From a virus, in the IMG/VR virus record IMGVR_UViG_3300046615_000228, positions 1-41,785 of that record: a stretch of DNA of 41,785 nucleotides; one strand, 5' to 3'. The notes below the pieces were generated by a model. The model was not told the DNA's origin, did no database searches, and worked only from the letters and a program-made list of their open reading frames with translations. Both the position numbers and the translations under genes were made by a program. Every line of letters starts with the position of its first letter. Position 1 is the first letter of the stretch. This document shows, piece by piece, positions 128 through 41,704 of the stretch.

Positions 128-732
128 TAGGTCGGCTGCTGACGGCCCGCCATGTAGCCCTGCCACAAGCCGCCGAGAGCGCCAGCCGTGCCCGCTGCGA
201 ACTGCGCGTTGTTGTTGTAGCTGGACGCGCGTGCGTTGCCTGCGCCTGCAAGGCCCTGCTGAATGCTGTTGGCCGAGTTAGCGCCCAGCGCGCCAAGGCC
301 CTGCCCGGTCGTCTGGCCCTGATTGGCAAGCGACTGCAACCGGTTGTAGTAAGCGTTGTAATTCTGCGAGGCCAAGCCCTGCCCGAACTTCATAAGGTCC
401 GCCGAGTGGCCGCCGCTGTAGAGACCACCACGCGCAGCCGCAGAGCGGTCTAGTCCCTGCATTCCCTGGTCGAAGGCAAACTGATAATCCGGCGACTTGT
501 TGAACGCCGTCATATCGCCCGCGTTCAACCGCTGCATCTGGCTCAGCGCGTCGCCGCCAGCGTTCAGCCACGGCATCTGATCCTGTCGCGACAGGTCGTA
601 TTGCCTGCGCTGTTCGTCAACGCCTGCCATCTCGCCAGCCGCCGCAGCACTCGCGCCCTTGTTCGCTTGGTGGCTTGCAACAGCGCCACCCACGACGGTC
701 ACAGCCGCCGCGCCAACCATTCCCCACGTCAT
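46..732 (-). CDS. Internal virion / DNA-ejection protein, the first of three. Gly/Ala/Gln-rich.
   Basis: 228-aa ORF. Hydrophobic N-terminus (MVGAAAVTVVGGAVA) and a low-complexity G/A/Q/N-rich C-terminal half. ATGA overlap with the cupin gene upstream and TGATG overlap with the 453-aa gene across the junction. Size and position resemble P22 gp7 (about 229 aa as I recall). Confidence 0.7.
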   Translation of the reverse strand: MTWGMVGAAAVTVVGGAVASHQANKGASAAAAGEMAGVDEQRRQYDLSRQDQMPWLNAGGDALSQMQRLNAGDMTAFNKSPDYQFAFDQGMQGLDRSAAARGGLYSGGHSADLMKFGQGLASQNYNAYYNRLQSLANQGQTTGQGLGALGANSANSIQQGLAGAGNARASSYNNNAQFAAGTAGALGGLWQGYMAGRQQPTYGSPYAAAPTTASGANWQNAYGAGGYS

Positions 733-1256
733 GCGTACACTCCCTGTAGCGCGTTGGTTAGCGCAGCCTGTTCCGTTGGCTGCGGGCTGTATTCAATCTG
801 TGCCTCGGGGATGATCGTGTCGGCCTCGATAACTTCCAGGTCCGTCTCATCCGTGGCGTGCATCGTGTAGAACAGGCAATCGCTGTGCGTGTACAGGGCG
901 CGCTTGACGCCTGCGGGCGACTTCCACACCTTCGGGCCGGTGATTCGCTCCATGCCCTTGTCCGTCCAGACAGTGGCCTCACCAGACACCAGCATCACTA
1001 GATGTTCGTGACGGTGCATCTTCCCCACCACCACCGAATCGCCTGCAATCGCCAGCTCCCGCAGGTACATGCCCGGCGCGAAGTAGTGTTCCGGCTTGAA
1101 CTCGATCTGATTCGGCAGCGTTCCGACCGCATCCTGTAGCCGCTTGATCTGGCCCAGCGTCGGATGCTTCGGCATCTCAAACGGCACGACTTCCTTCCGC
1201 CCATACGTCCACGTCCCGAGGTCATAGACCACGGGCTGATTCGCAACTAAGTCCAT
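729..1256 (-). CDS. Cupin-fold protein embedded in the virion operon
   Basis: 175 aa. Cupin-like metal motif GKMHRHEHLVMLVSGE and a second His-containing strand (ALYTHSDCLFYTMH). TAAATG junction upstream and ATGA overlap downstream. Confidence 0.75.
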   Translation of the reverse strand: MDLVANQPVVYDLGTWTYGRKEVVPFEMPKHPTLGQIKRLQDAVGTLPNQIEFKPEHYFAPGMYLRELAIAGDSVVVGKMHRHEHLVMLVSGEATVWTDKGMERITGPKVWKSPAGVKRALYTHSDCLFYTMHATDETDLEVIEADTIIPEAQIEYSPQPTEQAALTNALQGVYA

Positions 1257-1472
1257 TTATTGCCCCGCCGATTCCGTTTGAATGCTGGCCGCGAGTACGT
1301 CTGCGCGGTAATCGTCCGTAACGCGCCACTGAAAGACGAAGTGCCGCGCAACTCCCCACCTACGGGTGACGCACGGCTTCATGAAGTCGCCAAGTTCGCC
1401 GATGGGAACCTGCCGCCAGTCGGAGAACGTGTGGCCGCCGTCCTTGCTAACGCAAATGTCTATGTAGTTCAT
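1257..1472 (-). CDS. Detached C-terminal segment (71 aa) of a gp10-type tail-hub / DNA-stabilization protein
   Basis: Starts MNYIDICVSKDGGHTFSDW... and ends ...VLAASIQTESAGQ. The ATG at 1472 overlaps the TGA of the 785-aa ORF (ATGA). Pattern S-K-D-G-G-x-T-F ... R-R-W-G-x-x-R ... F-x-W-R-V ... I-Q-T-E matches my recollection of the P22 gp10 C-terminus. The 92-aa track ORF start at 1535 is rejected in favour of the coupled ATG. Confidence 0.7.
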   Translation of the reverse strand: MNYIDICVSKDGGHTFSDWRQVPIGELGDFMKPCVTRRWGVARHFVFQWRVTDDYRADVLAASIQTESAGQ

Positions 1473-3826
1473 GCGCGGGCCTGCCCTACGGAGTACATCG
1501 GGTAATAGGCCGCGAACGTAGAACGCTGGGTCCACGACTGGCCGTTAGTGCTGGTGTAGAGCTTGCCAACGCCACCGGACGACGTGAGCAGGATGAAGTG
1601 CGAGCCCGTCCAGAAGATTTGGACAACCTGCTGCGTCAGCGCCACGCCAGCGTTCACAAACCCGCTACCGCTGTCGTACGCCACCAGCCCGTTATTGGTG
1701 CCAATGACCTTGATGCCGTTTCCGTAGGCGCATGCGGTGATCTGCGTCGCGCTGGTCAGGGTCGGCAGAGTCACAGTGGACACAACGCCCGCCTGCGTGA
1801 CCTTCTTCAGCACGGGCAGCGGGGTCAGCGTCGCGCCGCCGAAGTAGTAATCCGTCCCGTCGGTCATGCCGCAAAGGACGGTCTGGATGCCGTGCAGGGT
1901 TCCAGCCGTCCATGTGGCGGCCGTGTCCGTGGAAAGACGAACGTTGTTCCCGTCGATGCCCGCCAGCTTCCCGGCCGTGCGGTTCAGCGCAACGATGTAC
2001 TTAATCGCGGCGCCGCCAGCGGTGAAGGTCAGACCCTCGTCCGTGGACTTCTGGAGGTTTCCGGTATGCGCGGGCAGGATTAGGGCGCTGTTGGTGTAGG
2101 CATCGAATCCGCCACTAGCCACAGCGCCTGCCGTGACATTCGCAGCGGTCAGCGACCACGCTGCGCCGTAATTCGTGGAGTAGGCAGCCTTTGCAGCCGC
2201 CGCCACGCCTCGACCGAAGTAGCGGCCCGACAAGCCCGTTAGATACGGGGCATTATTGGCGTTGCCAGCGGTGATGACGGGGGCGGTATTCCACGTAATG
2301 CCGTCCGTACTCTGGATCATCACGACGGACGCGCCACTACCAGCAGCAAGCAGCATCGGGCGCGCCGAGATAACCACCGTATCGGCAAGGTCTACGTAAT
2401 CGCCGCCCGCATCGGTCACGCGAACGGTGAAGTTGTAGGTGCCCGCCAGCGTGTAGCCGAACGTAACCGTGCCATCCGTGCCAAGCGTCGCGCCGGTCGG
2501 AAGCGCGCCGGACACAAGGGAATAGGTATGCGGATGCAGGCCGCCCGTTCCGACGTAGCTGTACGTGCCGGAATCGTCCACGTAGGCGTCTGCAAGGCTG
2601 CCCGTAAGCGTCAGCGGGGCATTCAGCGGCGCGGGGAACGGAGACGAATCAGCGGTGATGCCCGTGTCTAGCTCCAGCTTCAGCGCGTTGACAATCAGGC
2701 GGTTGCCGTTGTCATGGATCGGCGGCAGCGTGCCAATACGCTCCAACGGCTGGCCTGCGTCATTGCTCAGGCGCCAATCGAGCTGGTAGAGCGAGCCGTC
2801 CGTGTAATCCAGCCCCATCCATGCACCGGACCAGCGGACGAGGTGCGACATACGCCAGAAGTCCAGGCCGTAGGACTTGCGGCGATGCCACTCGCCCGTA
2901 GCCATATCAAAGCCGAACGTCTGCCCGTCCGTGAAGGTCAGGTAATAGATCTTGTGGCCGCGATCCTCAAACGTGTACGCATAGGCGTCCGCCATGTTGC
3001 AGCGGGCAATGGCCTGTTCGATGGGGTGCGTGGAGATGCGCTGCGGGGTATAGCCGTTCAGGCGGTATACGCTGCCGTCATGGCCCAGCCACACCACAGA
3101 GTTGTCCAGGCGCACGACGGAATGGGCAGCCGCGCAGCCGATCTCCATGCCTGCATCACGGCGCTGAAACGTGCCCGTAGCCGCGCCCGTGTTGTAGAAG
3201 AACTCCGAAGTACGCTCGCCAAGCACGAACACTTCGCCGTGCGTGGTGATGAGCGTGACGATCTTGTCGGGGGCGGTTTCAGCCTCGGCACGGTCCAAGG
3301 TGTTGTAGTCGCCTGCCGCAGCAAGGTCAGACCAAAACCAATAGCGGCCCTGTGGCTCCACGCCAACGATGTACTGGTCTACGAAGTCAAAGACCTTCGC
3401 GCCGGGGAAGCCGTCGTCGGTGATCTGCGCCAGCGAGTCGGTGACAGTGTTGTAGACGTAGCCGGACAGGCCGTTTGCAACGGCGATCTGGTTGCCGTCC
3501 GTGATCTGGTTGTGCGCGATGGAGCAGCGGCCGACGCCTGGAATGGTGCCCAGCGAGGTCATGCCACCGTCAGCGGCCACGCTGTAAAGCGTCTGACCCT
3601 TAACGACGACTAGCAGCCCTTCCGCGTTGTGCATCCCACGGCCAGCCGATTCCACGCCATCGGCAGAGAACAGCGAGCAGCCGGGAGCCTGACGCGGCAT
3701 GATCGGCGAACGCGTACCTTCACGCTCCGCCTTGACCGGGATGTAATTTATATAGCTTTGGGTCGCCCACGGCGTGGCGTCGTCAGCGTAGGCACCGCCG
3801 ACGAAGGGGAGAGGAGTCCAGCGCAT
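1469..3826 (-). CDS. gp10-type tail-hub (packaged-DNA stabilization) protein N-domain fused to an Ig-like domain and an Asp-box (BNR) beta-propeller
   Basis: 785 aa. Residues 1-390 look like the P22 gp10 / phage stabilisation family (YINYIPV..., ...NRLIVNALKLELDTGI). Residues about 415-485 look like a He_PIG/cadherin-like Ig domain (YSLVSGALPTGATLGTDGTVTFGYTLAGTYNFTVRVTDAGG). Residues about 490-785 carry Asp boxes STDGITW, STNYGAAW, STDEGLTF, STDTAATW, STNGQSW. Confidence 0.9.
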   Translation of the reverse strand: MRWTPLPFVGGAYADDATPWATQSYINYIPVKAEREGTRSPIMPRQAPGCSLFSADGVESAGRGMHNAEGLLVVVKGQTLYSVAADGGMTSLGTIPGVGRCSIAHNQITDGNQIAVANGLSGYVYNTVTDSLAQITDDGFPGAKVFDFVDQYIVGVEPQGRYWFWSDLAAAGDYNTLDRAEAETAPDKIVTLITTHGEVFVLGERTSEFFYNTGAATGTFQRRDAGMEIGCAAAHSVVRLDNSVVWLGHDGSVYRLNGYTPQRISTHPIEQAIARCNMADAYAYTFEDRGHKIYYLTFTDGQTFGFDMATGEWHRRKSYGLDFWRMSHLVRWSGAWMGLDYTDGSLYQLDWRLSNDAGQPLERIGTLPPIHDNGNRLIVNALKLELDTGITADSSPFPAPLNAPLTLTGSLADAYVDDSGTYSYVGTGGLHPHTYSLVSGALPTGATLGTDGTVTFGYTLAGTYNFTVRVTDAGGDYVDLADTVVISARPMLLAAGSGASVVMIQSTDGITWNTAPVITAGNANNAPYLTGLSGRYFGRGVAAAAKAAYSTNYGAAWSLTAANVTAGAVASGGFDAYTNSALILPAHTGNLQKSTDEGLTFTAGGAAIKYIVALNRTAGKLAGIDGNNVRLSTDTAATWTAGTLHGIQTVLCGMTDGTDYYFGGATLTPLPVLKKVTQAGVVSTVTLPTLTSATQITACAYGNGIKVIGTNNGLVAYDSGSGFVNAGVALTQQVVQIFWTGSHFILLTSSGGVGKLYTSTNGQSWTQRSTFAAYYPMYSVGQARA

Positions 3827-4461
3827 TAGCGGGTACGGACCCGGAGCGTGCCGCCTGCATACACCCGTGCGCGTTCGCTATGGTTCGCGCCGTCCGCCAA
3901 TTGGCGATACCGGGCCTCCCAAATGGGCATCTTCTCGTTCATGCCGAGGAACAGCGCCGCCTCATAAAGACAGGCGTAGGTGAACAGCTCGGGATAGCGC
4001 GCAAAGGTCGTGGCGTCCGCCCAGTCGGCCACAGTCACGATGCTTTCCGGCTTGCTGTAGTAGCTGCCAATCACGGTGCCGGATGCGGCAGGCCAAAAGA
4101 TCAGCGAATCGCCGTCCTGAGCAGCATAGCGAGACGGGCCGCCCGTGCCAGCGTCCAGCAGATTTCGCACGCGCGACAACGGAACAATGTCCAGCGGCGG
4201 TTCGCCACTGAAATAGACCTCTTTCAGCGCCAAGAGGTCGGCCGGAAGCGCAGCCGCATTCGCCGTGACAGACGCGGAGATGGCCTTAACCATCGTGGAC
4301 GCGCGCAGGCCGTTGGTAGCAGCGTCGCCGTGGTACACGCGGCCCTCGCCCAGCCCCACAATCAGGTCAAGCGTATTGACGCTGAACGTACCGGTTAGCT
4401 CGTCACCTTCGATCAGCCATAGCAGGCTATTTCGGAAGGCGTCATAAGAAGTGAAGTTCAC
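3826..4461 (-). CDS. Head-to-tail adaptor / head completion protein (at the P22 gp4 position)
   Basis: 211 aa. GTG start in a GTGA overlap with the upstream gene and TAATG overlap with the hub gene. Sits between the capsid and gp10-type genes. Function is inferred from synteny only. Confidence 0.65.
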   Translation of the reverse strand: MNFTSYDAFRNSLLWLIEGDELTGTFSVNTLDLIVGLGEGRVYHGDAATNGLRASTMVKAISASVTANAAALPADLLALKEVYFSGEPPLDIVPLSRVRNLLDAGTGGPSRYAAQDGDSLIFWPAASGTVIGSYYSKPESIVTVADWADATTFARYPELFTYACLYEAALFLGMNEKMPIWEARYRQLADGANHSERARVYAGGTLRVRTR

Positions 4462-4830: not shown

Positions 4831-5799
4831 TTACGAACCGGTGACGGTGATATCGCGGATCGCGTACAGCGGCTTTTCGTCACGCACGATCAGCATGGAC
4901 TCCGAACGCACCTGCCAGTTCTTGGCATCACCCACGGTCGCCATCTGCTCCGACTCCTCACCACGCAGCACGCCAGAGGCGAGCTTGTCGGCGTCGATGA
5001 TGTAGATGGTGTCGTTCAGACCCACCACAGCCGTCGCCTGTACGCGGTTCGGGACGATCTTGGTAACGCCGAAGTCCGAGCGGTAGAAGTCGAACGCGAC
5101 ATTGACCACGGCCGCCTGCTTGCTTCCGACTTCGTTAGTACGCTGCACGTTGGCACCGAAGGACGAAATCTTGACCTTGTGGGCCGGGGAGCAGAGGACG
5201 ATGGAACCATCACCGCCGTTCTCGTAACAGCTCTGGATGCCATCCTTAAGCATCGTCTCGGTCAGGGCACGGTCAGTGCCGTTGACGGGGGCGGTGTTGG
5301 TGGTCGGATCAGGCGAGACGCCGGTAGCGCCGAACGAGTCCATCGTGAGGAAGCCGTACAGGCCACGGGTCTTGGCAGCAGCGCCAGAGGTGCCGGTGAC
5401 CGTAGCGCCGGAGCTGATATACGCAGCTTCCTTGTCGCGCTTCAGTTCCAGAAACTTCTTCATCTTGAGGCGCTTGGCCTCCGAGTCGCGGCCGTACTTC
5501 TTGACGCGCTCAGCCGTGTTCGACACCGAAACCGTGTCCTGGAAAATCTGGGTACGGTTGTTCAGCAGGGTCGGCTCGGTCTGCGCCGCGTAGGTGGCGT
5601 CCGCGCCTTCGATGGCGGCACGGGTGCCGTCCGGGGTGCGGTAGGTGTCGCGCTGCCATTCGGTGTAGACGTTGTCCACCGACTGACGCTCAATCATCGA
5701 GATAAGCGGGGCATCGGACGGGTTGAAGTTGTAAATCTGGTCGATTACGTCTTCTTTGACCTTCACAACGGAAGGGGTAATCAGGGTATTGGTCGGCAT
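4831..5799 (-). CDS. Major capsid protein (HK97 fold, SU10/BPP-1-like type)
   Basis: 322 aa, directly downstream of an acidic coiled-coil scaffold gene and followed by a strong hairpin terminator. The composition and length are typical of podoviral HK97-fold capsid proteins. Confidence 0.85.
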   Translation of the reverse strand: MPTNTLITPSVVKVKEDVIDQIYNFNPSDAPLISMIERQSVDNVYTEWQRDTYRTPDGTRAAIEGADATYAAQTEPTLLNNRTQIFQDTVSVSNTAERVKKYGRDSEAKRLKMKKFLELKRDKEAAYISSGATVTGTSGAAAKTRGLYGFLTMDSFGATGVSPDPTTNTAPVNGTDRALTETMLKDGIQSCYENGGDGSIVLCSPAHKVKISSFGANVQRTNEVGSKQAAVVNVAFDFYRSDFGVTKIVPNRVQATAVVGLNDTIYIIDADKLASGVLRGEESEQMATVGDAKNWQVRSESMLIVRDEKPLYAIRDITVTGS

Positions 5800-19060: not shown

Positions 19061-19243
19061 TCACCGGGAATCCTCCGAACACGCCGACTTGCACTCGTCC
19101 GCCGTGTCCGCGATCAGTAGCGATACCTCGCCCCGGTTGCGGATCGCCTGAAACTTCCACTTGCCGCTCACCCTGTAAGCCGTCACCCGATACCTCCCGC
19201 AATTGCTGTTCTCGTGGTACTTCCCGCCGCGTGACCACTTCAA
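19061..19243 (-). CDS. Hypothetical small protein (60 aa)
   Basis: TTG at 19243 overlaps the dnaB TGA (alternative ATG at 19294). Hand-counted GC3 is about 85%. Sequence KWSRGGKYHENSNCGRYRVTAYRVSGKWKFQAIRNRGEVSLL... Confidence 0.5.
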   Translation of the reverse strand: MKWSRGGKYHENSNCGRYRVTAYRVSGKWKFQAIRNRGEVSLLIADTADECKSACSEDSR

Positions 19244-20568
19244 AAGTCGCGCTCGCTTGCCAAGTCGCCGAAGCGCATGGTTTCGGCCAGCCATGCGAGC
19301 TGGAACTGTCCGCAGGGGCCGTGTCGGTTCTTTTCGACGTTCAGCTCTGCGACGCCCTTTAGGTTGCTGTCCTCGCGGTAAACCTCGTCGCGGTACAGCA
19401 TCGCGATCACGTCTGCCTCACGCACAAGGTCGTCACTGTTGGCGAGGTCGGACATACCGGGACGCTTGTCCTCCCGGCTGTCCACGCCCTTGATTACCTG
19501 CGATAGCGCGATAACCGGCACGTCCAAGTCGCGGGCGATTTCTTTCAGGCCGCGCGCCACCTCTGAAACCTCGTCAACGCGGTTGCTCGCCTTCGGCACG
19601 CGGATGCGCTGGGCATAGTCGATATAGGCCGCCTTCATGCCGTGCTCGTGCTTCCACTGGCGCAAGGTGCGGCGGACTTCGTCCAGCGTCGGGGCGCTGC
19701 GGTCGTAGATGAAAAACGACTGCTTCTTGATCTGGACGATGGCGTTATTCAGGCGCGGCCATTCCTCGTCCTCCAGGTCGCCGCTGCGCATCTTCTCGGC
19801 GGCCACCCCGGAGGTGCGGGCAATCACTCGCTGCCCGACCTGCATGGCTGACTGCTCGCCAGAAATCATCCCGACGCAATGGCCCTGCTCTGCCGCGTAC
19901 TCGGCGAGGTTGATTAGAAGGGCCGTCTTGCCCATCGCGGGGCGCGCGCCAATCACGATCAGGTCGCCGCCGTGGAAGCCGCCAAGGCGCTTGTCCATGC
20001 GCTTAAACCCGGTCGGGATGCCGCGAATCTGCCCGCCCGACTGCCACGCCGACTGCATATCGGCGAATGCGTCCGTGACCGCATTGGTCAGCGTGTGCTC
20101 GTGGCGGTTCTCCTGCTTCGCCAGCGCCATAAGGGCACCGATAGCTGAGTCGATGATTTCGGACGATTCCCGGCGGTTCGGGTTGTAGCTGCTGTCCAGC
20201 AATTCCCCGGCAGCTTCAATGGCGGCCCGAAGCACAGACTTGTCGCGAACGATCCCCGCATAGGCGCTGATGTTCGCGGCGCTCGGCGTGGTGCTGGCAA
20301 GCTCGATCAGGTACGCACCACCCTGAACCTGCTCACTCAGCCCCTTGGACTCAAACCACTCGCCAAGCGTCACCGCGTCGAACGGCTGCGACTTGCGGTC
20401 AAGCTCGCAGATGGCGCGGTAGATGGCTTGATGATCGCGGCGGATGAAGTCGGCTTCGGCCAAGTTCACGCGGGCCAGCGCCTGGGGGGCCAGCATCAAG
20501 CCGCCAAGCACCGCTTGCTCGGCCTCCACGGATGCGGGCGGAACCCGCACGTTTTCCATACGGGTCAT
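19240..20568 (-). CDS. dnaB: Replicative DNA helicase (DnaB family)
   Basis: 442 aa. N-terminal PPASVEAEQAVLGGLML. Walker A GARPAMGKTA, Walker B-like AYIDYAQ. C-terminal NRHGPCG. Confidence 0.95.
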   Translation of the reverse strand: MTRMENVRVPPASVEAEQAVLGGLMLAPQALARVNLAEADFIRRDHQAIYRAICELDRKSQPFDAVTLGEWFESKGLSEQVQGGAYLIELASTTPSAANISAYAGIVRDKSVLRAAIEAAGELLDSSYNPNRRESSEIIDSAIGALMALAKQENRHEHTLTNAVTDAFADMQSAWQSGGQIRGIPTGFKRMDKRLGGFHGGDLIVIGARPAMGKTALLINLAEYAAEQGHCVGMISGEQSAMQVGQRVIARTSGVAAEKMRSGDLEDEEWPRLNNAIVQIKKQSFFIYDRSAPTLDEVRRTLRQWKHEHGMKAAYIDYAQRIRVPKASNRVDEVSEVARGLKEIARDLDVPVIALSQVIKGVDSREDKRPGMSDLANSDDLVREADVIAMLYRDEVYREDSNLKGVAELNVEKNRHGPCGQFQLAWLAETMRFGDLASERDF

Positions 20569-31474: not shown

Positions 31475-31689
31475 GTGACCTATGGCTTGAACCCGCCGAG
31501 GTCGTGGAACTGACCGCTAAGAAGCGGTGGGCGGCGCAGTGTCGCGAGCTGGCGGCAATGGGCGTACCGTTCATGCCGAACGCCGTAGGGCGGCCCCTGG
31601 TCGAACGTGCGGCGGTGTGCAAGGCGACCGCGAAGCCGAAGGCCAAGCGCGGCCCTAACTGGGATGCCTTGAGGAAGGACGCGGCCTAA
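31471..31689 (+). CDS. DUF4224-like protein, probable excisionase / directionality factor
   Basis: LEPAEVVELTAKKRWAAQCRELAAMGVPFMPNAVGRPLV pattern. ATGA-coupled upstream and TAATG-coupled to the integrase. Confidence 0.65.
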   Translation: MSDLWLEPAEVVELTAKKRWAAQCRELAAMGVPFMPNAVGRPLVERAAVCKATAKPKAKRGPNWDALRKDAA

Positions 31690-32675
31690 TGGGACGCAAG
31701 CGCACCCGCGACAAGCATCTGCCCGCGAACATGCAGCGCAAGCACGGGGCGTACTACTTCGTGAAGGCGGGCAAGTGGAATCCGCTGGCGAAGGACTACC
31801 CCTCGGCGCTGGTGAAATATGCCGCGCTGATCGGTGCCCCGCCGAAGGTCCGCACGGTGAAGGATGCGGTGTGGCACTACATAGAGGCCAGTACCGGACG
31901 ACTCGCGGACAAGACGCTGGCGGGCTACCGGATTTCAGCGGCCAACGTCTGCACGGTGTTTGGCGGAATGGCGCTGGAAGACGTGACGGCGGCGGACGTG
32001 TATCGCTACCTCACCGAAAAGGGCAACGTACAGGCAAACCGCGACCGCGCCCTGTTGTCTGCCGCCTACAGCGAGGCCCGCCGCATCGGCGCGTTTCCGA
32101 AGGCATCCGACGATCCCACCAAGGGGCTGGAGTACCGCAACCCGGAAAAGCCGCGCACGCGCTATGTGACGGATGCGGAGCTGGACGCGATCATTGCGGC
32201 GGCCAGTCCCAAGCTGGGCTGCATCGCCCGCTTCATCGAACTGACCGGGATGCGCCAGGGCGATGCGCTGGGCGTGAAGCTGGCGGACCTAGACGACGAC
32301 GGCTTCACGTATTGGAACAGCAAGGGCAAGAAATGGCAGGGGCTGGAGTGGTCGCCGGAGCTAACCGCCACGGTCGAGGACGCCAAACGCCTATGGCGTC
32401 GGTTCGGGCGGGAGTGGCTGTTTGAGTCGAACCCGAAAGGCAAGCACAAGGAGCGAGGAATCGGCCCGTACACGCCGAGCGGACTGCGCGCCCTATGGCG
32501 GGTAGCGCGGACCAAGGCGGGGCTTACAGACGTGCGCCTGCACGATCTGCGCGCTAAGGCGGGCAGTGACGTAGGGAGCAACGAGGACGCGCAACGGCTG
32601 CTTGGGCACGCCGATGGCAAGGTGACGCGCCGACACTACAGGCGCAAGGTGGAGCGGTCGAAGCCTGTCCGCTGA
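31689..32675 (+). CDS. int: Tyrosine integrase
   Basis: 328 aa. R...HDLRAKAGSDV...LLGHADGKVTRRHY catalytic signature. N-terminal SAM-like domain. Confidence 0.95.
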   Translation: MGRKRTRDKHLPANMQRKHGAYYFVKAGKWNPLAKDYPSALVKYAALIGAPPKVRTVKDAVWHYIEASTGRLADKTLAGYRISAANVCTVFGGMALEDVTAADVYRYLTEKGNVQANRDRALLSAAYSEARRIGAFPKASDDPTKGLEYRNPEKPRTRYVTDAELDAIIAAASPKLGCIARFIELTGMRQGDALGVKLADLDDDGFTYWNSKGKKWQGLEWSPELTATVEDAKRLWRRFGREWLFESNPKGKHKERGIGPYTPSGLRALWRVARTKAGLTDVRLHDLRAKAGSDVGSNEDAQRLLGHADGKVTRRHYRRKVERSKPVR

Positions 32676-33562: not shown

Positions 33563-34003
33563 TTAGCCGATCCGTCGCGCGCTAACGTTGTCCACGGTGC
33601 CAGCACCACCGCCGCCCGCCGCGAAACCCAAGAAAGACTGCGAATCATTGGCAACGAAGGTGAACGAGAACGAGCCGCTGCGGCCGGTCGGCGAGCCTGA
33701 CAACGCGCCAGCCTGCCCCGCAGTATCCCATGCACCGCAAAAACAGGCATTGCCGGTATTGACCGCCCATACGCGATAGGTCGCCCCGGCCACCGTCGCG
33801 ATGCTCTGCTCCAAGTAGCCAGACCCGGCCGCGAGATTGGCAACGCCGCCAGAGATCGTGACCAGCGCCCCCTTTGTCCATGACGCGTCAACGTCGAAGC
33901 CGCCGTTTGTTACCAGTTCGGGTCCGAATGAACCACCGCCTTCCGTAACCCCGCGGGCGAGGGGGCCGAGAAGAGGACGGAGTATGGGAAGAGTAATGCT
34001 CAT
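33563..34003 (-). CDS. Tail-fibre module protein with a shared N-terminal anchor motif and a CBM/jelly-roll-like domain
   Basis: 146 aa from ATG 34003 (TAATG overlap). Starts MSITLPILRPLLGPLARGVTEGGG, then NGGFDVDASWTKG..., typical of carbohydrate-binding modules. Confidence 0.65.
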   Translation of the reverse strand: MSITLPILRPLLGPLARGVTEGGGSFGPELVTNGGFDVDASWTKGALVTISGGVANLAAGSGYLEQSIATVAGATYRVWAVNTGNACFCGAWDTAGQAGALSGSPTGRSGSFSFTFVANDSQSFLGFAAGGGGAGTVDNVSARRIG

Positions 34004-35694
34004 TAGTAAGTCGCCCCGCTTGTGACGTGGGTCCACACCGTGCCATTGCAGTAGACCGGCCCCTTGCCGCACGCAAGCCCCGCATTGAGGTTGTAGGCCA
34101 TATCGCCGTCCCGCTTGGTGATGCGGTCCACGGCCAGCCGTATTCCGAACGAGCGGCAATAGACGTTCTGCGCGGCGGTCTTGAACAGCCCATTTCCTGC
34201 CGTATTTTCAGCGATGCCGGTGAACTCCATGCTGGCGGAAGCATTCTGGATCGAAACGAAATCGCCCGTGATGAGCCGAAATCCCGCGAAGTTCGCCACC
34301 AGCAGCGTTGATGCCGTGTGCGTGATGGCTGCGCCGTTCGCCGGGGTGTCATGCAGGCCGGACACATCGAGGAAATTCACCGCAGAGGTGTCGCCCACAT
34401 ACAGCAGAGTCGAGCCGGTCAGGGCGCAATCCTTCACCGCGAGCTGCTTCACCGTGGCCGCGCCAGAGACGCTTATGGTGCGCGTGCTGGCATTGACCAG
34501 CGACCCATGCGGGTTGCGCACGACCAGCGCATCCACCGGGCCGCCCGTGACCCGCACGCCTTGCATGGACGCTCCGGCAGCGTCCTCCAGCTTCAGCCCG
34601 TCCACCGTGAGGTTTAGGGTTCGGGCGTTCGCCGTCGTGTCCACTTGGACGCCGTAATGCACCACGCTTGCCATCGCACTGGCGGGCGCGATGTTGCGGA
34701 AGGTGATCCGGCCGTACTTGGTGCCGCTAAATGACCCGGTGTAGTAGAGCCGGGCCTGGGCATACCCGGCATTTAGGTTCGTGACGCTTACCCCGTCCAC
34801 CAGGATGTTGTCGAAGATTCCACCGAGCGCGAAGGCGTCGAACAGGGACACGCCAGCCCCCGACACCGTGCCGGAAACGTCGCGCACGGTGATGTTCTTC
34901 ATATCCCCTGGCGACGTTACATTGCCGCTGTTCGGGTTGATAAACAGATTGACGCCCGAAACGCCGGACACCGATCCCGACTGTACTGGCCGGATGCGCT
35001 CAACTACCACGCCGTCAATGGTGCCCTTTGAGTAGTCGTATGCCGCATAGTCCGCACAGCCGAGCGCCACGAAGTCATCGTGCGAGTTGCCAGAAATGTC
35101 GTGTATCCAGCCGTTAGACGCGGGGCCGGTCACGTGCACGCCATCGGATGCGGACGCCACGATGATGTTGCCCACTTCAAAGAGGGTCACGTCCGAGAGG
35201 GAAACCGCGTACTTGCCCGAGGTGCTGGTAATGCTGCGCGGCGTGACGACGAGGCCGTCAACCTTGTTGAATAGGAAACGATGCGTGTTGCCATCGACAG
35301 CCCCGGCCGTCCAGTCGCCGCCGATGATGGCGATATTGGAGTCCCGGCCCGCGATCAGCGCGTTCTCGTTTTTAACCATCGGGTTTGTCGTGGATGGCGT
35401 GGTGATCGTGCAGCCCGTCAAATCCAGCGTTGTGTTGGACTTGATTACCAGCGTCCCGCCGTTCAAGTCATAGGACGCGCCCTTCGTTCCACGCACAATG
35501 GGGCGCCCCGAGTTAAGCGCCGCCTGCATCTTAATCAGGGTGGTTGCGCCCGCGTAGTCCTCGATAACAGCGATGTTGCCGATCATCGGCGTTACGGAAG
35601 TGAGGCGGCGCACGGCTCCGCTCACTACGCCGAGCACGGAATCGCCGACCGCTGGGGTGCCTATGGCAATGGTTGGAACCTGTACGTCTGCCAT
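34003..35694 (-). CDS. Tailspike / depolymerase with a right-handed parallel beta-helix
   Basis: 563 aa. Periodic beta-helix rungs (NIAIIGGDW, VTLFEVGNIIV, DGVHVTG, NITVRDVSG, NILVDGVSV, LVVRNPHG, LAVKDCAL). Confidence 0.8.
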   Translation of the reverse strand: MADVQVPTIAIGTPAVGDSVLGVVSGAVRRLTSVTPMIGNIAVIEDYAGATTLIKMQAALNSGRPIVRGTKGASYDLNGGTLVIKSNTTLDLTGCTITTPSTTNPMVKNENALIAGRDSNIAIIGGDWTAGAVDGNTHRFLFNKVDGLVVTPRSITSTSGKYAVSLSDVTLFEVGNIIVASASDGVHVTGPASNGWIHDISGNSHDDFVALGCADYAAYDYSKGTIDGVVVERIRPVQSGSVSGVSGVNLFINPNSGNVTSPGDMKNITVRDVSGTVSGAGVSLFDAFALGGIFDNILVDGVSVTNLNAGYAQARLYYTGSFSGTKYGRITFRNIAPASAMASVVHYGVQVDTTANARTLNLTVDGLKLEDAAGASMQGVRVTGGPVDALVVRNPHGSLVNASTRTISVSGAATVKQLAVKDCALTGSTLLYVGDTSAVNFLDVSGLHDTPANGAAITHTASTLLVANFAGFRLITGDFVSIQNASASMEFTGIAENTAGNGLFKTAAQNVYCRSFGIRLAVDRITKRDGDMAYNLNAGLACGKGPVYCNGTVWTHVTSGATY

Positions 35695-35874: not shown

Positions 35875-37365
35875 TTAGAATCGGGTGACGGTGACGTTCA
35901 GGTCAGACACCGTGATGTTGGTTGTCGCCGTGTCGTTGGCGACGAACACTTCCACGTAATCGTTGGTGGACAGCGAGACCATTGCCTGTGTGCCGATATT
36001 GGAAGCGGCGCCGCTGCCGGAGGTCTGGAATCGCGACGTGCTTTCGGCCATCGTGGTGCCATTGACGGCCACACGCATCCGCAGGTTCTGGTTATTGCCC
36101 GAGGTCATAGAGGCGAACACGGTCACGAGGAACGAGCCAGGGAACGCGCCCGTGTATTGAGCGCGGTTACTGGTCGAATTGCTGAACTTCTGTGTGACTG
36201 ACGTAACTTCCGTCGTGGTGCCCGCGATCTTGACGAATGTGCCCGTGCTGGCAATCGTGGTGGCCGTGGCGCTGCCGGTCATGTAGTACTGAGTGACGGC
36301 GTTGGAATTGGTGATCCCTGAGCAGTTAAAAAACAGCGCCTTGTTCGACGTGTGCGTGATGCCCGCCAGATATGTGCCCGCACCCGCGAAGCTCACGTTG
36401 TCGAGGATGTATGCCTCGCTGGGGATCGTGGCCGAGGTGCTGAAGTTGATGCCGGTTTCGCCTGCATCCACCTGAAACGCCGTGTACAGCATCCGGAATC
36501 GACGCAGGAAGGTCGCCGTGGACGGAACCGTGATGGTGGTCTGCCCTGCGCGGCCATCGAACAGGGCCGTTTCCGCGACGAAGGACGCAAACGTGCCGTC
36601 CAGCGTCAGGTTCGCGGAGTTGGAAATGATCTGATCTTTCCAGACGACGTTCTGGTAATCCTTCACCGTGCCGATGGTCGGGGTGTCCAGAATGCGGCAG
36701 CCCTCCCACAGCAGGACGTGGGTCACGTCGCTGTCCAGGCTAAACAACGTGCCCGTGTTGGCCGTGAGCTGGATGTAGCGGAACGACAGGGACGAGGCCG
36801 ACGTGATCCACGTGGACGAGCCGCCACCCGAGAACAGCAGGCCGCAGGTATTGGCCGACGCGCCAATCAGCGAGTTATTCGTGCCGCAGACGATCCGGTC
36901 GCCCGCCATATCGATGATGTCGGTGAGCAGATAGCAGGCGTCATCCTCTAGCGTGACCACGCCAGCCACTGCATCCGGCAAGTCGGCCTTGGTGTTGACA
37001 ACCACGTAGGCGGGCGAAATCAGGTGATGCCAGCCCTTGTTGCCGTTGGAGTCCGTGCCATAGGTCCGCGTCGGGCCGGGGTTGGTCTCGTCGCCGTCTA
37101 GCGTGACGTTGAACACGCCGCCTTCCAGCGTGCCGCCAACCTCTACAGAGCCGCCGCCGTTGATGACGAAGGACACGGAGCTATCCTGCGGCGGGATGGT
37201 CGCCACGTCGCCATCCGGGGAGCCCAGCGCCGAGGCAATGGCAGCAATGTCCGACTCCGTAGCGGAAGCCGAATTGCTCAGCCCCTCCAGCCAGCGCCTA
37301 AAGGTGACGGACGCAAGGCTGCCATCCTGCGTGATGGCCTCCCGGTGATTAGGGAGCGAACTCAC
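35875..37365 (-). CDS. Tail fibre / receptor-binding protein
   Basis: 496 aa, GTG start in a GTGA overlap. N-terminal ITQDGSLASVTFRRWLEGL, a central beta-rich region and a C-terminal jelly-roll-like domain. Confidence 0.75.
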   Translation of the reverse strand: MSSLPNHREAITQDGSLASVTFRRWLEGLSNSASATESDIAAIASALGSPDGDVATIPPQDSSVSFVINGGGSVEVGGTLEGGVFNVTLDGDETNPGPTRTYGTDSNGNKGWHHLISPAYVVVNTKADLPDAVAGVVTLEDDACYLLTDIIDMAGDRIVCGTNNSLIGASANTCGLLFSGGGSSTWITSASSLSFRYIQLTANTGTLFSLDSDVTHVLLWEGCRILDTPTIGTVKDYQNVVWKDQIISNSANLTLDGTFASFVAETALFDGRAGQTTITVPSTATFLRRFRMLYTAFQVDAGETGINFSTSATIPSEAYILDNVSFAGAGTYLAGITHTSNKALFFNCSGITNSNAVTQYYMTGSATATTIASTGTFVKIAGTTTEVTSVTQKFSNSTSNRAQYTGAFPGSFLVTVFASMTSGNNQNLRMRVAVNGTTMAESTSRFQTSGSGAASNIGTQAMVSLSTNDYVEVFVANDTATTNITVSDLNVTVTRF

Positions 37366-38162
37366 ACGCGCAGACCGATTGCCACGTACTTGAACGTAAC
37401 GGCGGCATTGAAGTTGTACTGGCTCTGCGAGTCGTCAATTTCGCCCATCGTGAAATTGACGGTAAACCCGGTCGTGGAGCTGGTCGGGATCGCCCATGAA
37501 GGCATGTTGGTGCCGCTGGATAGGCTGGAGTTGGTGACCTGAATCCCGATCCAGACAGGCGTCGTGGTGAACGGGGTCGCAAAGACCACCGTGGCCGCCT
37601 GAGTACGGCCGCCCAGGTTGGTGCCCGTGCCCGTGCCGCTGAGCACGTACATATCGTTAACGCTGAACTCCGTCGTGGTCTGCGACACGTCAGACGTACC
37701 CGCCGCGCCGTCCGCAGGCTTGGCGATCCACGACAGGGACGTGCCATCGGTGGATAGCACCTTGTTAGCGTTGCCGGACGGGTCCGGGACTTCGCGCACG
37801 CTGGCCCACGACAGGGAGCTACCGTTGGTGGTCAGAAACTTGCCCGAATTGCCCGACTGCGATGGGATCGAGGCTCCGGCACCCCCCTCCTCCTGCACCG
37901 GGTCGGCCTCGTCCACCAGCACGCCGTCTGCGTCATACAGGCGCACGCGGTACACGCCCGAGCCCCACACGTCAGACGGCAGGCGGCCAGCGCTGTCTAG
38001 CGTGACCTCATTGCCGAGGTTCACGGATAGGGCAGAGTCGGAATAGACCGACTTTGGGGTCTCCGTCAGGGTGTCGTAGAAACGCAGCTCCCCGCCCGCC
38101 AGGGGTTGGAACGTGTTGTCTACGTAAACGACGAGGGGGTTCGCTGGGCGAAATGCGGCCAT
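37362..38162 (-). CDS. Tail fibre protein with an internal repeat and a possible H-type-lectin-like C-terminal domain
   Basis: 266 aa. Repeats GNSGKFLTTNGSSLSWASV / GNANKVLSTDGTSLSWIAKP. C-terminus ATVVFATPFTTTPVWIGIQV...TTGFTVNF. Confidence 0.75.
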   Translation of the reverse strand: MAAFRPANPLVVYVDNTFQPLAGGELRFYDTLTETPKSVYSDSALSVNLGNEVTLDSAGRLPSDVWGSGVYRVRLYDADGVLVDEADPVQEEGGAGASIPSQSGNSGKFLTTNGSSLSWASVREVPDPSGNANKVLSTDGTSLSWIAKPADGAAGTSDVSQTTTEFSVNDMYVLSGTGTGTNLGGRTQAATVVFATPFTTTPVWIGIQVTNSSLSSGTNMPSWAIPTSSTTGFTVNFTMGEIDDSQSQYNFNAAVTFKYVAIGLRV

Positions 38163-38406: not shown

Positions 38407-38547
38407 ATGCTGGGCTTTATGTTCGTTGTGCTACTGATCGCCATCGTTTTTGGCGTCAACATGATTCACAAGGCGGTTCACGAGCTGAAAGACCGTGTGA
38501 CCGAATCAGAAGCTAGGCTTATCAGCGAAATAGAGCGGAACCGTTAA
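38407..38547 (+). CDS. Small membrane-anchored protein (46 aa) on the opposite strand, in a low-GC patch
   Basis: MLGFMFVVLLIAIVFGVNMIHKAVHELKDRVTESEARLISEIERNR. Local GC is about 50% (hand count of 38401-38547). Its TAA interlocks with the TAA of the convergent 599-aa gene (TTAA). Confidence 0.5.
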   Translation: MLGFMFVVLLIAIVFGVNMIHKAVHELKDRVTESEARLISEIERNR

Positions 38548-40343
38548 CGCTTCTTCTGCTTGAACCGCCGCACCAATTCATCATCCGCCGCGACTTCTTC
38601 CGGCGTTGCAACCCGCCCGCCTGCCATCTCCAGTTCAAGCATCTGACCAAGGCGCGGACCCGCTACCGGCAATGCACGCGGCGCACCACTGACCAACCTC
38701 GCCAGCCCCGCAGTGGGCTTGCCCTGCTGCAACAGCTTGGATGCCATGTTGGAATTGAGCGCACGGCCAGCAACCGCGCCGCCCGCAATGCCCTTAGCCA
38801 GCAGCGGCAGGACGCCCAGCGATGCGGCGCCAATCGCGCCCCCGCCCCCCGTCATCAGGTTGGTATAGAACTGGCGCTGAGCCGATCCAGAATCGCCTAG
38901 ACCGTCCTTCAGCACGTTCTGCCCAATCTTCGCCAGCTCGCGCATCTCCTTGGTGCTGCCCTTGCGAATCAGGGGCCACAGCGAGGCGGGACGCACGTTG
39001 CCAGCCGCGCCACCACCCTGCCCGGCCGCACCGCTGGCCTGCTTGAGGGCATCTTCCACCACGCGCATGTTCGCCCACTGTCCGCGACTCTTGGCGAGTG
39101 CTGCTGCGTCATCCGGGCCGATTGCCTCGGCTGCAATATCGTCCAGCGTCTTGCGAAGCTCTTTCACGGCCGATCCGGTCTTGTCCGGTCCTTCCGCCTT
39201 CTGGATGAGCGTGCGAACCGCCTGATACTTCTTGCCAGTCAGTGCGCCATCTTCGGAATTGGAGATGATGCGATCCAACTGGTTGCGGACGACTTGCGCC
39301 TCATCGTGCGTCAGGTTCTTGGCGGCCCCGCTTTCCACGGCCACAAGGCGGCGCATCGCATCGGCCGACAGGGGAACGTCGTTGCGGCCATAAATGTCCT
39401 CAAACACGCCGCCAATCTTCTGGCGCGCAGAGCGCATCACGTCATCTGTCAGGTACTTGGCCTTGTCGAGGCCCATAGAGCGGCCAAGGGCGCTGTTAAA
39501 CGCCTCCTGCTGCCCCTTGGCTGCGCCAGCAGCGCCAGAGAACGGCAGCCAGCGCGAAACCGCCTGCATCGCCTTTATCGGGCCGGATTCGGACACCTGA
39601 GCAACGTTCAGCGGGATGCCAGCGCGGCGAGCAAGGTCAATCGAAGTCTGCACGGCTTCGGGCAGGGCGTTCTTCGCCCCTGTAGCCAGTCGGCCGAGAC
39701 CTGAAGCGACGCCCTGACCGACGACGCCAAGCCCAGCACCGAGGCCAGTATTAAGCGCGCGATACTCGCCCGAGGCTACCGGCTGAAGTCCGCTGAACAA
39801 CGCGCCATTAGCAGCCGACAAGCCGAACTTGCCAAGTGTGCTGGCAGCGCCGCCAGGAATGGCCGCCGTCTGCGCAACTTGCCCGAGAACATTACCCGCC
39901 AAGCCCGCCTTGGTGTCCATCAACGGGGCTTCTAGCCTGCGCGTCTCGTCAATGTCCGCCTGCTGCGATGCCTGCGACGCGGCCACGTAATCATCCGCGC
40001 CGTGCATGATCCGCTTGGCTGCGTCCATGCCATAGGCATCGACCAGCGGAGCCATCGTGCTGGTGAAGCGACGGGCGTTATCCGTGACCGCCTGCTTTAC
40101 GCCGCGCCCGGTGCCAACAATGGCGCTGCCAAAGCCCGCGCGCACCTTGTCCAGCGTGGACATATCATCGGCAGGGTTAGCGGCGGCCTGCGGCTTCGGC
40201 GCACCCGTAATCAGGCGAGCAAAGTCGGAATCGTTGGCGGACGGGGCATCAAATTCCCGAGTCGCGGCGTCGATTTCCTCTGGAGAAGCGTCATCGGGGA
40301 ACTCATGCATCCTCCCCTGTGCGTCTCGGAAGTATTGGGCCAT
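38544..40343 (-). CDS. Internal virion / DNA-ejection protein, the third of three (P22 gp16-sized)
   Basis: 599 aa. N-terminal GRMHEFPDDASPEEID. Ala/Gly-rich with hydrophobic stretches near the C-terminus (GGGGAIGAASLGVLPLLAKGIAGGAVAG). Assigned by synteny. Confidence 0.75.
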   Translation of the reverse strand: MAQYFRDAQGRMHEFPDDASPEEIDAATREFDAPSANDSDFARLITGAPKPQAAANPADDMSTLDKVRAGFGSAIVGTGRGVKQAVTDNARRFTSTMAPLVDAYGMDAAKRIMHGADDYVAASQASQQADIDETRRLEAPLMDTKAGLAGNVLGQVAQTAAIPGGAASTLGKFGLSAANGALFSGLQPVASGEYRALNTGLGAGLGVVGQGVASGLGRLATGAKNALPEAVQTSIDLARRAGIPLNVAQVSESGPIKAMQAVSRWLPFSGAAGAAKGQQEAFNSALGRSMGLDKAKYLTDDVMRSARQKIGGVFEDIYGRNDVPLSADAMRRLVAVESGAAKNLTHDEAQVVRNQLDRIISNSEDGALTGKKYQAVRTLIQKAEGPDKTGSAVKELRKTLDDIAAEAIGPDDAAALAKSRGQWANMRVVEDALKQASGAAGQGGGAAGNVRPASLWPLIRKGSTKEMRELAKIGQNVLKDGLGDSGSAQRQFYTNLMTGGGGAIGAASLGVLPLLAKGIAGGAVAGRALNSNMASKLLQQGKPTAGLARLVSGAPRALPVAGPRLGQMLELEMAGGRVATPEEVAADDELVRRFKQKKR

Positions 40344-41704
40344 TAATTGCTGCTCCTGACGAGCTTGCCGTTAGCGTCTCGGGTCCAGACAGTGCCGCCC
40401 CCGCCGCCCTGAGTAATGGACGTGTTGGGGCGATCCTGCGACTCCGCATACTTCTTATTCAGCCGCTTAATCTGCTGAAGCGCAGTCATTCGGGTTTCAA
40501 CAGGAAGCGTGGGGTTTGCGAGGTCGCCGGCCATTTGCTTATAGAGCTGCACGTCCTTATCCGACTGCGGACCCTGCATTCGCGGCATGGACGAGGTGAG
40601 CTGACCCGCAATCGTTTGCAACGCAGCGATGGCCTTTGCGCCCGTCGTGGACTGGCCGAAAACAGCCGCGCCAGCGTCAACGAGGTTCCCGACAGAGCTT
40701 CCGGTGGAAAGAGGAAGCAAACGCTCCGCCTCATCCAACAACGTCAGCGCGCGATTAGCGTCTACCGCCTTGGTTGCCACCGCCGAATCACGCTCACTCC
40801 GCGCCTTTGCGGCAGCTTCAGCGGCAGCCTTCTTGGCTGCGTTTTCGGCCTCAATGTCGCCGCGTTGCGGAAGGTTGCGCAACTCAACGGCTTGCTTGGC
40901 CGCCGCCTCGGCTGCCGCAGTTTCGGCCGCACTTGGATTGCGCTGCGGAACTGGAGCAGCGGGCGGAGCCTGTCCGCCGACCATCATCGGCGCACCCTGC
41001 TGCGTGCGCATCCAGCTCTCTACCTGATCCTGCGGAACGCCCGCCTTCGTCATCTGGTTGGCAAATTCGGCGATCTGCTGATCGTCCATGCGCGGAGGCG
41101 GGGACGCTGCGCCAGCAGACGGACCAATCCCCGTGGTTTGGCCGATCTGGCCGCGCCCAGTGGTGACCAGATACGGCAACTGGCCCGGCTCATTGATGAG
41201 CTGCGTGCTAGGCGATGCCGCCTTGCCGGTATCAATGACCTGTCCGCCACGGGTGACGATGCCAATGTTCCCGTTTGCAAGGATTTGCGTGCTCTGGACG
41301 TTTCCGCCTCCGCTGTTCCCACCCAACGCCTGCGCCAGCTTCTGGATATTCGGCGCAAACGAGGGGTCCCACTGACCCGGAGCCGGGATGCCCAACGCCT
41401 GCGCCTGCTGCGCGAGCTGCGGATAGGCCTGTGCCTTCTGCTCATCGGGCAGGGCATCGAACGCGGTCGCGTATTCGCCGAGGCGTGCGCGGGCGTTGTC
41501 GTCCATGCCCTTGAAGTGGCTTTCCGCGTCATACGCAGCCGCAGGACTCACGCCCGCCATCTGCGCAATCAAGCCCTGGCGCTGGTCGCGCGGAGCCTGC
41601 ATGGACTGCTGCACCAAGCCAGCAAGGCGCGACTGCTGCCCACGTTGACGGCCTTCCTCGGACTTCTGCCCGATGTAATCCATCATTCCGAGAATGTCAG
41701 CCAT
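40343..41704 (-). CDS. Internal virion / DNA-ejection protein, the second of three (P22 gp20-sized)
   Basis: 453 aa, Gln/Ala/Gly-rich with helical segments. Coupled to the flanking ejection-protein genes. Confidence 0.75.
   Translation of the reverse strand: MADILGMMDYIGQKSEEGRQRGQQSRLAGLVQQSMQAPRDQRQGLIAQMAGVSPAAAYDAESHFKGMDDNARARLGEYATAFDALPDEQKAQAYPQLAQQAQALGIPAPGQWDPSFAPNIQKLAQALGGNSGGGNVQSTQILANGNIGIVTRGGQVIDTGKAASPSTQLINEPGQLPYLVTTGRGQIGQTTGIGPSAGAASPPPRMDDQQIAEFANQMTKAGVPQDQVESWMRTQQGAPMMVGGQAPPAAPVPQRNPSAAETAAAEAAAKQAVELRNLPQRGDIEAENAAKKAAAEAAAKARSERDSAVATKAVDANRALTLLDEAERLLPLSTGSSVGNLVDAGAAVFGQSTTGAKAIAALQTIAGQLTSSMPRMQGPQSDKDVQLYKQMAGDLANPTLPVETRMTALQQIKRLNKKYAESQDRPNTSITQGGGGGTVWTRDANGKLVRSSN

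Follow-up and report, generated by a model that had tools for sequence, protein, structure and literature searches.

The podophage tail hubs that have been characterized structurally are, to our knowledge, all single chains that recruit their tailspikes or fibers non-covalently. The hubs of P22 (gp10), Sf6 (gp8), Pam1, and Pan3 (PF11134, PHROG 578; PDB 8tvr, 8eap, 7sg7, 7eeq, 9vyg) have lengths of ~440-472 amino acids (aa). The viral sequence analyzed here, IMG/VR record IMGVR_UViG_3300046615_000228 (positions 1 to 41,785), is referred to in its full length of 41,785 nucleotides as the window. Its hub is like these proteins in the propeller, the C-terminal module, and the gene position, but it is broken after the propeller, carries an extension of ~395 aa, and has its last 71 residues encoded by a separate open reading frame (ORF). 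In Sf6 gp8, the six-bladed propeller is accompanied by an apical "lamin B1-like" domain, which is built jointly by the N- and C-terminal extensions and fits between two head-to-tail adaptor subunits at their interface (PMC9728967). The equivalent domain of Pa223 gp59 consists of residues 2-46 and 403-512 and binds the adaptor rings (bioRxiv 10.1101/2025.06.11.659172). We consider it likely that the window encodes a genuine two-gene tail hub, in which the 71-aa protein completes the apical domain in trans and a distal cassette is displayed for receptor binding. A hub of two polypeptides that displays a propeller had been proposed in a preliminary description of the window, and this is still the best reading of the locus.

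The large hub ORF (1469-3826, minus strand; 785 aa) was delineated using the ORF listing, PHROG 578, AlphaFold2 (AF2), and Foldseek. It comprises a hub propeller, a linker, an immunoglobulin (Ig)-like domain, and a distal Asp-box propeller. Residues 1-392 (2651-3826, minus strand) were assigned to a gp10/gp8-type tail-hub domain with N-terminal strands, a six-bladed propeller, and, at residues ~365-392, part of the apical adaptor-docking domain. A Pro/Ala-rich linker follows (residues 393-404; 2615-2650, minus strand), which is a low-confidence coil in the AF2 model and the site of inserts or breaks in relatives. The hidden Markov model (HMM) of the N-domain stops at residue ~392 in all relatives, and gaps and inserts begin there. 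PHROG 578 ("head closure Hc3") is the profile of the P22 gp10 family and has 486 positions. Residues 1-395 of the large ORF aligned to positions 1-404 of this profile (E = 6e-112), and residues 8-68 of the small ORF aligned to positions 411-471 (E = 7e-6). Because successive segments of one profile were matched, the two ORFs are collinear pieces of the same family. This agrees with the preliminary description, which had placed the N-terminal ~390 residues of the large ORF in the gp10 family and the C-terminal block of the hub in the 71-aa ORF.

In phmmer searches against PDB sequences, the N-terminal 395 residues matched the Pam1 hub 7eeq_1 (5e-20), the Pan3 hub 9vyg_M (1e-16), P22 gp10 (4e-5), and Sf6 gp8 (5.5e-5). 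The N-domain HMM built in this analysis matched residues 14-388 of P22 gp10 with an E-value of 7e-23. Pfam PF11134 (Phage_stabilise) gave no match at E≤0.1 on the large or the small ORF, and family membership is therefore grounded in PHROGs, PDB sequence matches, our own HMMs, and Foldseek. Most relatives carry a precomputed PF11134 match, and the Pfam model appears too narrow for the branch to which the window belongs. The AF2 model of the large ORF had a mean predicted local distance difference test (pLDDT) score of 85.7, with values >90 over residues ~50-360. The six best Foldseek matches of this model in the PDB were all hub proteins, aligned over 355-370 columns with a root mean square deviation of 2.7-3.8 Å. 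The top hubs were 9vyg_M, 8eap_D, 8u10_1, 7sg7_S, and 7eeq_1, with target-normalized template modeling (TM) scores (TMt) of 0.62-0.65 and E-values from 1e-17 to 1e-22. As modeled, the large ORF has the six-bladed interrupted β-propeller fold of P22 gp10-type hubs. It is not a single-chain hub of this type, its C-terminal module being encoded by the separate 71-aa ORF. The hub of the window is thus a variant and not an ordinary member of the family, as its apical domain could form only from two chains.

The small ORF (1257-1472, minus strand; 71 aa) runs from an ATG at 1472 to a stop at 1257 and was assigned to the detached C-terminal hub module, which corresponds to the C-terminal half of the apical adaptor-docking domain. 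Its start overlaps the stop of the large ORF in the sequence ATGA (1469-1472, minus strand; context ...GCGC-ATGA-ACTAC...), as previously noted, and lacks an upstream Shine-Dalgarno sequence. A family profile made from 40 small-ORF sequences was searched against PDB sequences and matched the C termini of the two cyanophage hubs, at residues 364-438 of 442 in 7eeq_1 (E = 3.5e-15) and residues 367-440 of 446 in 9vyg_M (E = 9.9e-13). P22 gp10 and Sf6 gp8 were not reached in this search. When the C-module HMM was searched directly against P22 gp10, a weak match to residues 419-463 was obtained (E = 1.4e-4). The P22 gp10 sequence maps the break between ...ESSTGV and LSATTDG...; the stretch of gp10 given in the preliminary description (...FDLEVESSTGVAQYADRLFLSATTDGINYG...VLWKRVGRIRRLIGFKLRV...IRLE) agrees with the real sequence. 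The small ORF contains a canonical Asp-box (SKDGGHTF), and unsplit hubs carry SDDGGxTW in the same module. The Asp-box of the hub C-module is strong enough to retrieve sialidases from the PDB by the motif alone. An origin of the distal propeller by duplication of this Asp-box module was considered as a possibility; Asp-boxes are widespread motifs.

Compared with its closest relative, L095, the small ORF showed 87.5% protein identity, and the codon differences were 26 synonymous versus 9 non-synonymous, which at the sequence level shows purifying selection. In the alignment it was as conserved as the C-module of unsplit hubs. The C-module was kept in every architectural variant, including a circular permutant, and was always adjacent to the hub gene. 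Standalone ORFs of ~71 aa were numerous among the relatives. The first search with the small ORF had yielded >100 apparent standalone small proteins, and many of these, entries of 79-130 aa, were gene-calling fragments. Such entries (e.g. P0011, P0012, and P0041, on contigs of ~1 kb) have as their first residue an internal Met of unsplit hubs (in ...VDMQTGVGL...). Being gene-calling artifacts, they were left out of the split count, and protein-database counts of standalone C-modules are inflated by them.

The best GenBank match was the cultured Xylella phage Xfas53 (NC_013599 / GQ421471), in which gp36 (642 aa) and gp37 (72 aa) are split by ATGA at the identical site. In L003, L004, and L005, which have different capsid types, large ORFs of 801, 637, and 770 aa are each followed by a 71-aa ORF with an ATGA overlap; in L005 the split is present next to a P22_Tail-4-type adaptor. 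The same break was found in >50 metagenomic contigs, nearly all with a stop-start overlap. ATGA or GTGA occurs at this site in Xfas53, L003-L005, L014, L016, L017, L021, L029, L034, and L095, the last of which has GTGA. The junction of L025 is an 8-nt overlap (ATGGCTGA), and TGATG, TAATG, and TGAGATG, the last without an overlap, also occur among the relatives. Of 80 IMG/VR loci sampled, 7 were split, and the junctions were ATGA (5), GTGA (1), and the 8-nt overlap ATGGCTGA (1). The best 120 hub-domain homologues, with 52-83% identity, were also surveyed. Uninterrupted versions were frequent in this set, 58 of the 120 being ordinary hubs of ~465 aa, and 44 consisted of the hub domain plus an extension without the C-module. 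The remainder comprised the hub domain only (14), hubs with in-frame inserts (3), and a permuted form (1). Comparison of these sequences shows that the break is real and conserved and is neither an error nor a one-off event.

A fused product would arise if the reading frames were joined by a programmed frameshift, or if an undetected indel or sequencing error had separated them; the true product would then be a single-chain hub with an insertion. Single-chain hubs with in-frame inserts do exist (P0159, P0254, P0255, L015, L069, and L082), and the frame of the small ORF is open for ~21 codons upstream of its ATG. However, the break was found repeatedly, in >50 independent assemblies and also in Xfas53, which was cultured and sequenced separately. 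Across the relatives the open window upstream of the start varies between 5 and 33 codons, and the junctions differ as listed above. No slippery heptamer (X XXY YYZ) was present within the last 33 codons of the large ORF. Together, the differing junction types, the variable open window, and the lack of a heptamer exclude sequencing error and programmed frameshifting for practical purposes. The indel or frameshift raised in the preliminary description is excluded, since independent assemblies have the break in common. A fused protein is therefore largely refuted and hardly credible.

The region between the two hub pieces was confirmed to encode an Ig domain and an Asp-box propeller. Residues 405-488 (2363-2614, minus strand) were assigned to a He_PIG-type Ig-like domain, or stalk, using Pfam, AF2, and tblastn. 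The match to Pfam He_PIG (PF05345) covered residues 426-475 and was below threshold (E = 3.8e-4, 21.3 bits versus a cut-off of 24). The homologous Ig domains of P0128 and P0130 exceeded the cut-off, and AF2 predicted a confident β-sandwich at residues ~405-488 (pLDDT 89-97). The domain is probably a He_PIG member. In tblastn searches it resembled the Ig decorations of major tail proteins of Gordonia and Nocardia phages. Residues 489-785 (1472-2362, minus strand) were assigned to a distal BNR/Asp-box β-propeller of ~six blades, a probable receptor-binding cassette. Five Asp-box-like motifs were found at residues 506, 550, 594, 632, and 759, three with canonical spacing and two that are one residue short. 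The AF2 model of residues 483-785 was an all-β propeller with ~25 strands, which corresponds to ~six blades (pLDDT 86; predicted TM score 0.88).

Relatives of the distal domain were rare, as only 26 matches were obtained when 1.84 billion representatives were scanned exhaustively with HMMER. Using the extension as query, a word-indexed protein search gave a single true homologue, its other matches being restricted to the Ig domain. The sole close homologue of the extension, P0121, showed 43-46% identity over the Ig domain and the propeller. It has an N-terminal Gp77 "fiber-tail adaptor" domain, and its gene adjoins another Gp77 gene. Weaker homologues of the extension were located inside Phage-tail_3/Rcc01698-type host-specificity proteins and in other split hubs.

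The preliminary description had called the displayed propeller glycan-binding or glycosidase-like. An enzyme, i.e. a sialidase- or GH74-like depolymerase of capsule, exopolysaccharide, or lipopolysaccharide, would be in line with the Asp-box repeats. The Foldseek matches in the PDB were headed by glycoside hydrolase (GH) family 74 xyloglucanases (E = 4e-8 to 1e-7; query-normalized TM score (TMq) 0.61-0.65), and one match in BFVD, from the Achromobacter phage Motura, is labeled "beta-1,4-xyloglucan hydrolase." However, the matched GH74 chains have 704-748 residues compared with ~300 for the distal domain. GH74 active sites lie between two propellers, and only one propeller is present here. No Pfam sialidase or GH family matched this single propeller of ~300 aa, and Pfam BNR reached an E-value of only 0.043. 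The non-enzymatic proteins Ycf48, sortilin, and DAIP matched equally well, the PDB matches as a whole having TMq values of 0.55-0.65. Matches in BFVD were to phage proteins, including fiber- and spike-type proteins, with TMq values up to 0.73. These structural matches are at the level of the fold class and give no evidence of enzymatic activity. We regard an enzymatic function as unlikely. The glycosidase part of the earlier claim is unsupported beyond the generic fold, and a binding role is more likely; most likely, the distal domain binds a surface glycan or another receptor.

The distal domain was compared between the window and L095. The last ~250 residues of the large ORF of L095 are unrelated to those of the window, with 29.7% identity in a forced global alignment. 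Downstream of the cassette, in addition to the conserved small ORF, the next gene was 60.5% identical. In BLASTP comparisons, 46 split extensions fell into 11 distal-domain clusters, and the distal type of the window was common to L014, L017, P0139, and P0140. Judged by these comparisons, the extension is a swappable fiber-type cassette. The conserved flanks, with the hub domain and Ig domain upstream and the small ORF downstream, around a variable distal domain constitute the signature of a receptor-binding module. The conserved hub and Ig sequence on one side and the small ORF on the other could serve as recombination flanks for swapping of the distal domain.

In the assembly that we propose, the 785-aa product would contribute two elements, the six-bladed propeller of the hub and the N-terminal portion of the apical domain, which would dock between adaptor subunits. 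Where the chain of an ordinary hub enters its last ~70 residues, the large chain would leave the hub at the apical junction, run outward as the Ig stalk and the ~six-bladed propeller, and have a free end there. The 71-aa protein would supply the missing C-terminal strands of the apical domain by pairing with the N terminus and residues ~365-392 of the large chain. Pairing in trans is suggested by the homology of the 71-aa protein to the C-terminal half of the Sf6 and Pa223 docking domain. In the single-chain AF2 model, pLDDT was low at residues 1-20 and 370-400, as expected of a half-domain without its partner. A stop-start overlap together with the lack of a ribosome-binding site of its own is, at the sequence level, what is expected of a translationally coupled gene pair; a Shine-Dalgarno-like motif was absent at 11 of 12 junctions of relatives. 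The ATGA overlap without a Shine-Dalgarno sequence suggests coupling by termination and reinitiation, and synthesis of the two proteins would then be obligatory and roughly equimolar. The hub would contain six copies of each protein, with six covalently attached distal propellers around the tail, displayed near the place where P22-type tailspikes usually bind.

Alternatively, the 71-aa protein could have a role of its own, e.g. as a chaperone of assembly or a separate accessory factor of the tail, in which case the truncated hub would dock without it. The adaptor of the window is of the SU10 type and not of the P22 gp4 type, so that details of docking may differ from those in Sf6 and P22. Against such a role, the module adjoins the hub gene in every variant and is re-fused at the other end of the hub in the circular permutant. 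The small ORF has also retained the degree of conservation seen in unsplit hubs, and the split is found beside P22_Tail-4-type adaptors as well (L005). An independent role is therefore very improbable, and completion of the apical domain by the 71-aa protein is preferred.

Several other arrangements were found at the junction of the hub domain and the C-module. In-frame inserts are present there in P0159, P0254, P0255, L015, L069, and L082, and also in L046, L079, and L045. In 24 unbroken genes among the 80 IMG/VR loci, the insertion at this junction amounts to 24-694 residues. By eye, the 332-aa insert of L069 is repeat-propeller-like and the 239-aa insert of L082 is lectin- or LamG-like. In L008 (3001-4891) the break lies before the extension, and an ORF of 399 aa is followed by one of 229 aa that contains the extension and the C-module. 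In L092 (3501-5367; GCA_020063765.1, JAITZL010000450.1) the hub is broken twice, at TGATG and TAATG overlaps, into ORFs of 392, 140, and 88 aa, of which only the last includes the C-module. The circular permutant P0164 is a single gene of 461 aa, in which the C-module (residues 4-69) stands ahead of the hub domain (residues 71-460). It was found on four contigs, among them L010 (3001-4386) and L011 (2711-4096), in the normal hub position between the adaptor-side and DUF6445 genes. A permuted hub is structurally plausible, since the apical domain brings the N and C termini together. Because in-frame inserts, L008, L092, and P0164 all involve the same junction, insertion and fission are separable. 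Of 56 split extensions, 48 had an Ig stalk, compared with 0 of 15 in-frame inserts of ≥70 aa. This fits the idea that a linear stalk with distant ends may not be accommodated as an in-frame insert.

The preliminary description had suggested that the locus arose by insertion of a mobile module that brought a stop and a restart of its own. In its strict form, a single cassette of Ig domain, propeller, stop, and restart was inserted into an intact hub, and all splits descend from this event. Nearly all type-A splits share the break point, the overlap (mostly ATGA), and an Ig domain directly after the hub domain (48 of 56), and this pattern is compatible with one origin followed by swapping of distal domains. 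A single event is opposed by the in-frame inserts, L008, L092, and P0164 among close relatives, and by the 8 split forms without an Ig domain. In addition, split and contiguous forms were interleaved in a neighbor-joining tree of the hub N-domain, with ~25 parsimony changes among 186 sequences; this tree is weakly resolved and confounded by recombination and cannot decide between one and several origins. The mobile-module idea thus holds only in part, given that insertion and breakage are separable, and we doubt that a single insertion event occurred. Tentatively, and with less than even confidence, we suggest that P22-like hubs generally have an "expansion slot" where blade 6 of the propeller joins the C-terminal strands of the adaptor-docking domain. 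This slot would have become a host-range cassette site in the Xfas53-like lineage, the two chains being kept so that a linear, fiber-like stalk of Ig and distal domain has an unattached end in solution.

If the expansion-slot reading is true, the 71-aa gene would be both a docking keystone on the adaptor and a conserved 3' recombination anchor. Hub assembly would need heterodimerization, which would be a built-in checkpoint. The unsplit, insert-bearing, and permuted forms and the three kinds of split form, which are 50-65% identical, would make up a natural series of domain insertion, fission, and permutation.

Some observations weigh against the two-chain hub as set out here. The association of the Ig stalk with breakage could equally reflect common descent. 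Breakage is not required for carrying a large domain, as in-frame inserts of up to 694 aa exist. The structural matches of the distal fold are generic propeller matches (TM scores 0.55-0.73), and completion of the apical domain in trans is argued from homology to solved single-chain hubs. Finally, other fiber-like genes are present at 35875-37365 and 34003-35694, so the primary receptor-binding protein could be one other than the hub extension.

The window is probably a whole genome of a temperate podophage (41.8 kb, 62% G+C). It was read as circularly permuted because the ejection cluster leaves the window at its start (46-732) and resumes at its end (38544-40343 and 40343-41704). Among GenBank phages, megablast with the first 6 kb as query gave no match, and the phage lacks a close sequenced relative. 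An integrase (31689-32675, plus strand) and a DnaB-like helicase (19240-20568, minus strand) are encoded. An SU10-type major capsid protein (4831-5799) lies upstream of the hub pair. The head-to-tail adaptor (3826-4461, minus strand) belongs to the SU10_adaptor family (Pfam E = 8.5e-19), and the composite apical domain is predicted to dock on it. Judged from its gene content, the genome is a mosaic of an SU10-type capsid and adaptor with an Xfas53-/P22-like hub region. The hub gene is located between the adaptor and the ejection genes, as expected of P22 gp10-type hubs.

A DUF6445/cupin-like gene (729-1256, minus strand; 175 aa) with an HxH...E motif matched PHROG 12032 and 24280 ("short tail fiber" and "tail fiber adhesin"). 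It was found directly after the small ORF in every relative examined, in L092 as an Asp_Arg_Hydrox family version, and was identified as the neighbor in L003-L005, L008, L009, and L010. The DUF6445 gene occupies the slot of P22 gp26, and no needle gene resembling gp26 was seen in the interval from the hub to the ejection genes. Downstream of the DUF6445 gene lies a P22 gp7-like ejection protein (46-732). Three candidate fiber genes (34003-35694, 35875-37365, and 37362-38162, all minus strand) follow the ejection genes. A weak "tail fiber protein" C terminus (PHROG 24754, 1.9e-7) was recognized in the 496-aa product, and the 563-aa product had no PHROG match. From these sequence assignments, the hub extension is probably not the sole receptor-binding protein of the phage.

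Nothing known about tail assembly is overturned by this locus. A hub with a receptor-binding-type propeller of its own and a docking domain completed by a separately translated 8-kDa protein would be a different construction principle. For annotation, the 71-aa genes are now called "hypothetical" or "conserved phage protein," and the large genes resemble truncated hubs. For host-range prediction and engineering of temperate podophages of the Xylella, Xanthomonas, and Lysobacter type, the locus offers a cassette with clean conserved flanks. For protein evolution, one fold is found among close relatives in contiguous, insert-bearing, and circularly permuted versions and with different kinds of split.

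The closest known counterpart is Xfas53 gp36/gp37, which has the same architecture and the ATGA break. Identity to the window was 48% over residues 2-487, including the Ig domain, and gp37 showed 39% identity to the small ORF. Xfas53 differs in an unrelated distal domain of ~150 aa and in a P22-type capsid module compared with the SU10 type here. In GenBank, gp37 is labeled only "conserved phage protein." The preliminary description knew of no split gp10, and our literature search, the scope of which did not include the original Xfas53 paper, found no described split hub either. The arrangement is not unique to the window, however, as the split in Xfas53 is identical; the two-chain layout has been in GenBank since the deposition of Xfas53, yet is apparently undescribed. 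The hubs with in-frame inserts (P0159, P0254, P0255, L015, L069, and L082) use the same insertion point, but they are single polypeptides, with no Ig stalk among 15 inserts. "Evolved" Dit hubs of siphophages are likewise core tail-hub proteins with in-frame carbohydrate-binding insertions at a permissive site, in a different family and morphotype. We know of no split gene among them. In P0121, which has the PF23148 Gp77 "podophage GP4 fiber-tail adaptor" domain, the Ig-propeller module that is 43-46% identical to the extension of the window is part of a separate fiber protein that attaches non-covalently, whereas in the window this module is covalently fused to the hub.

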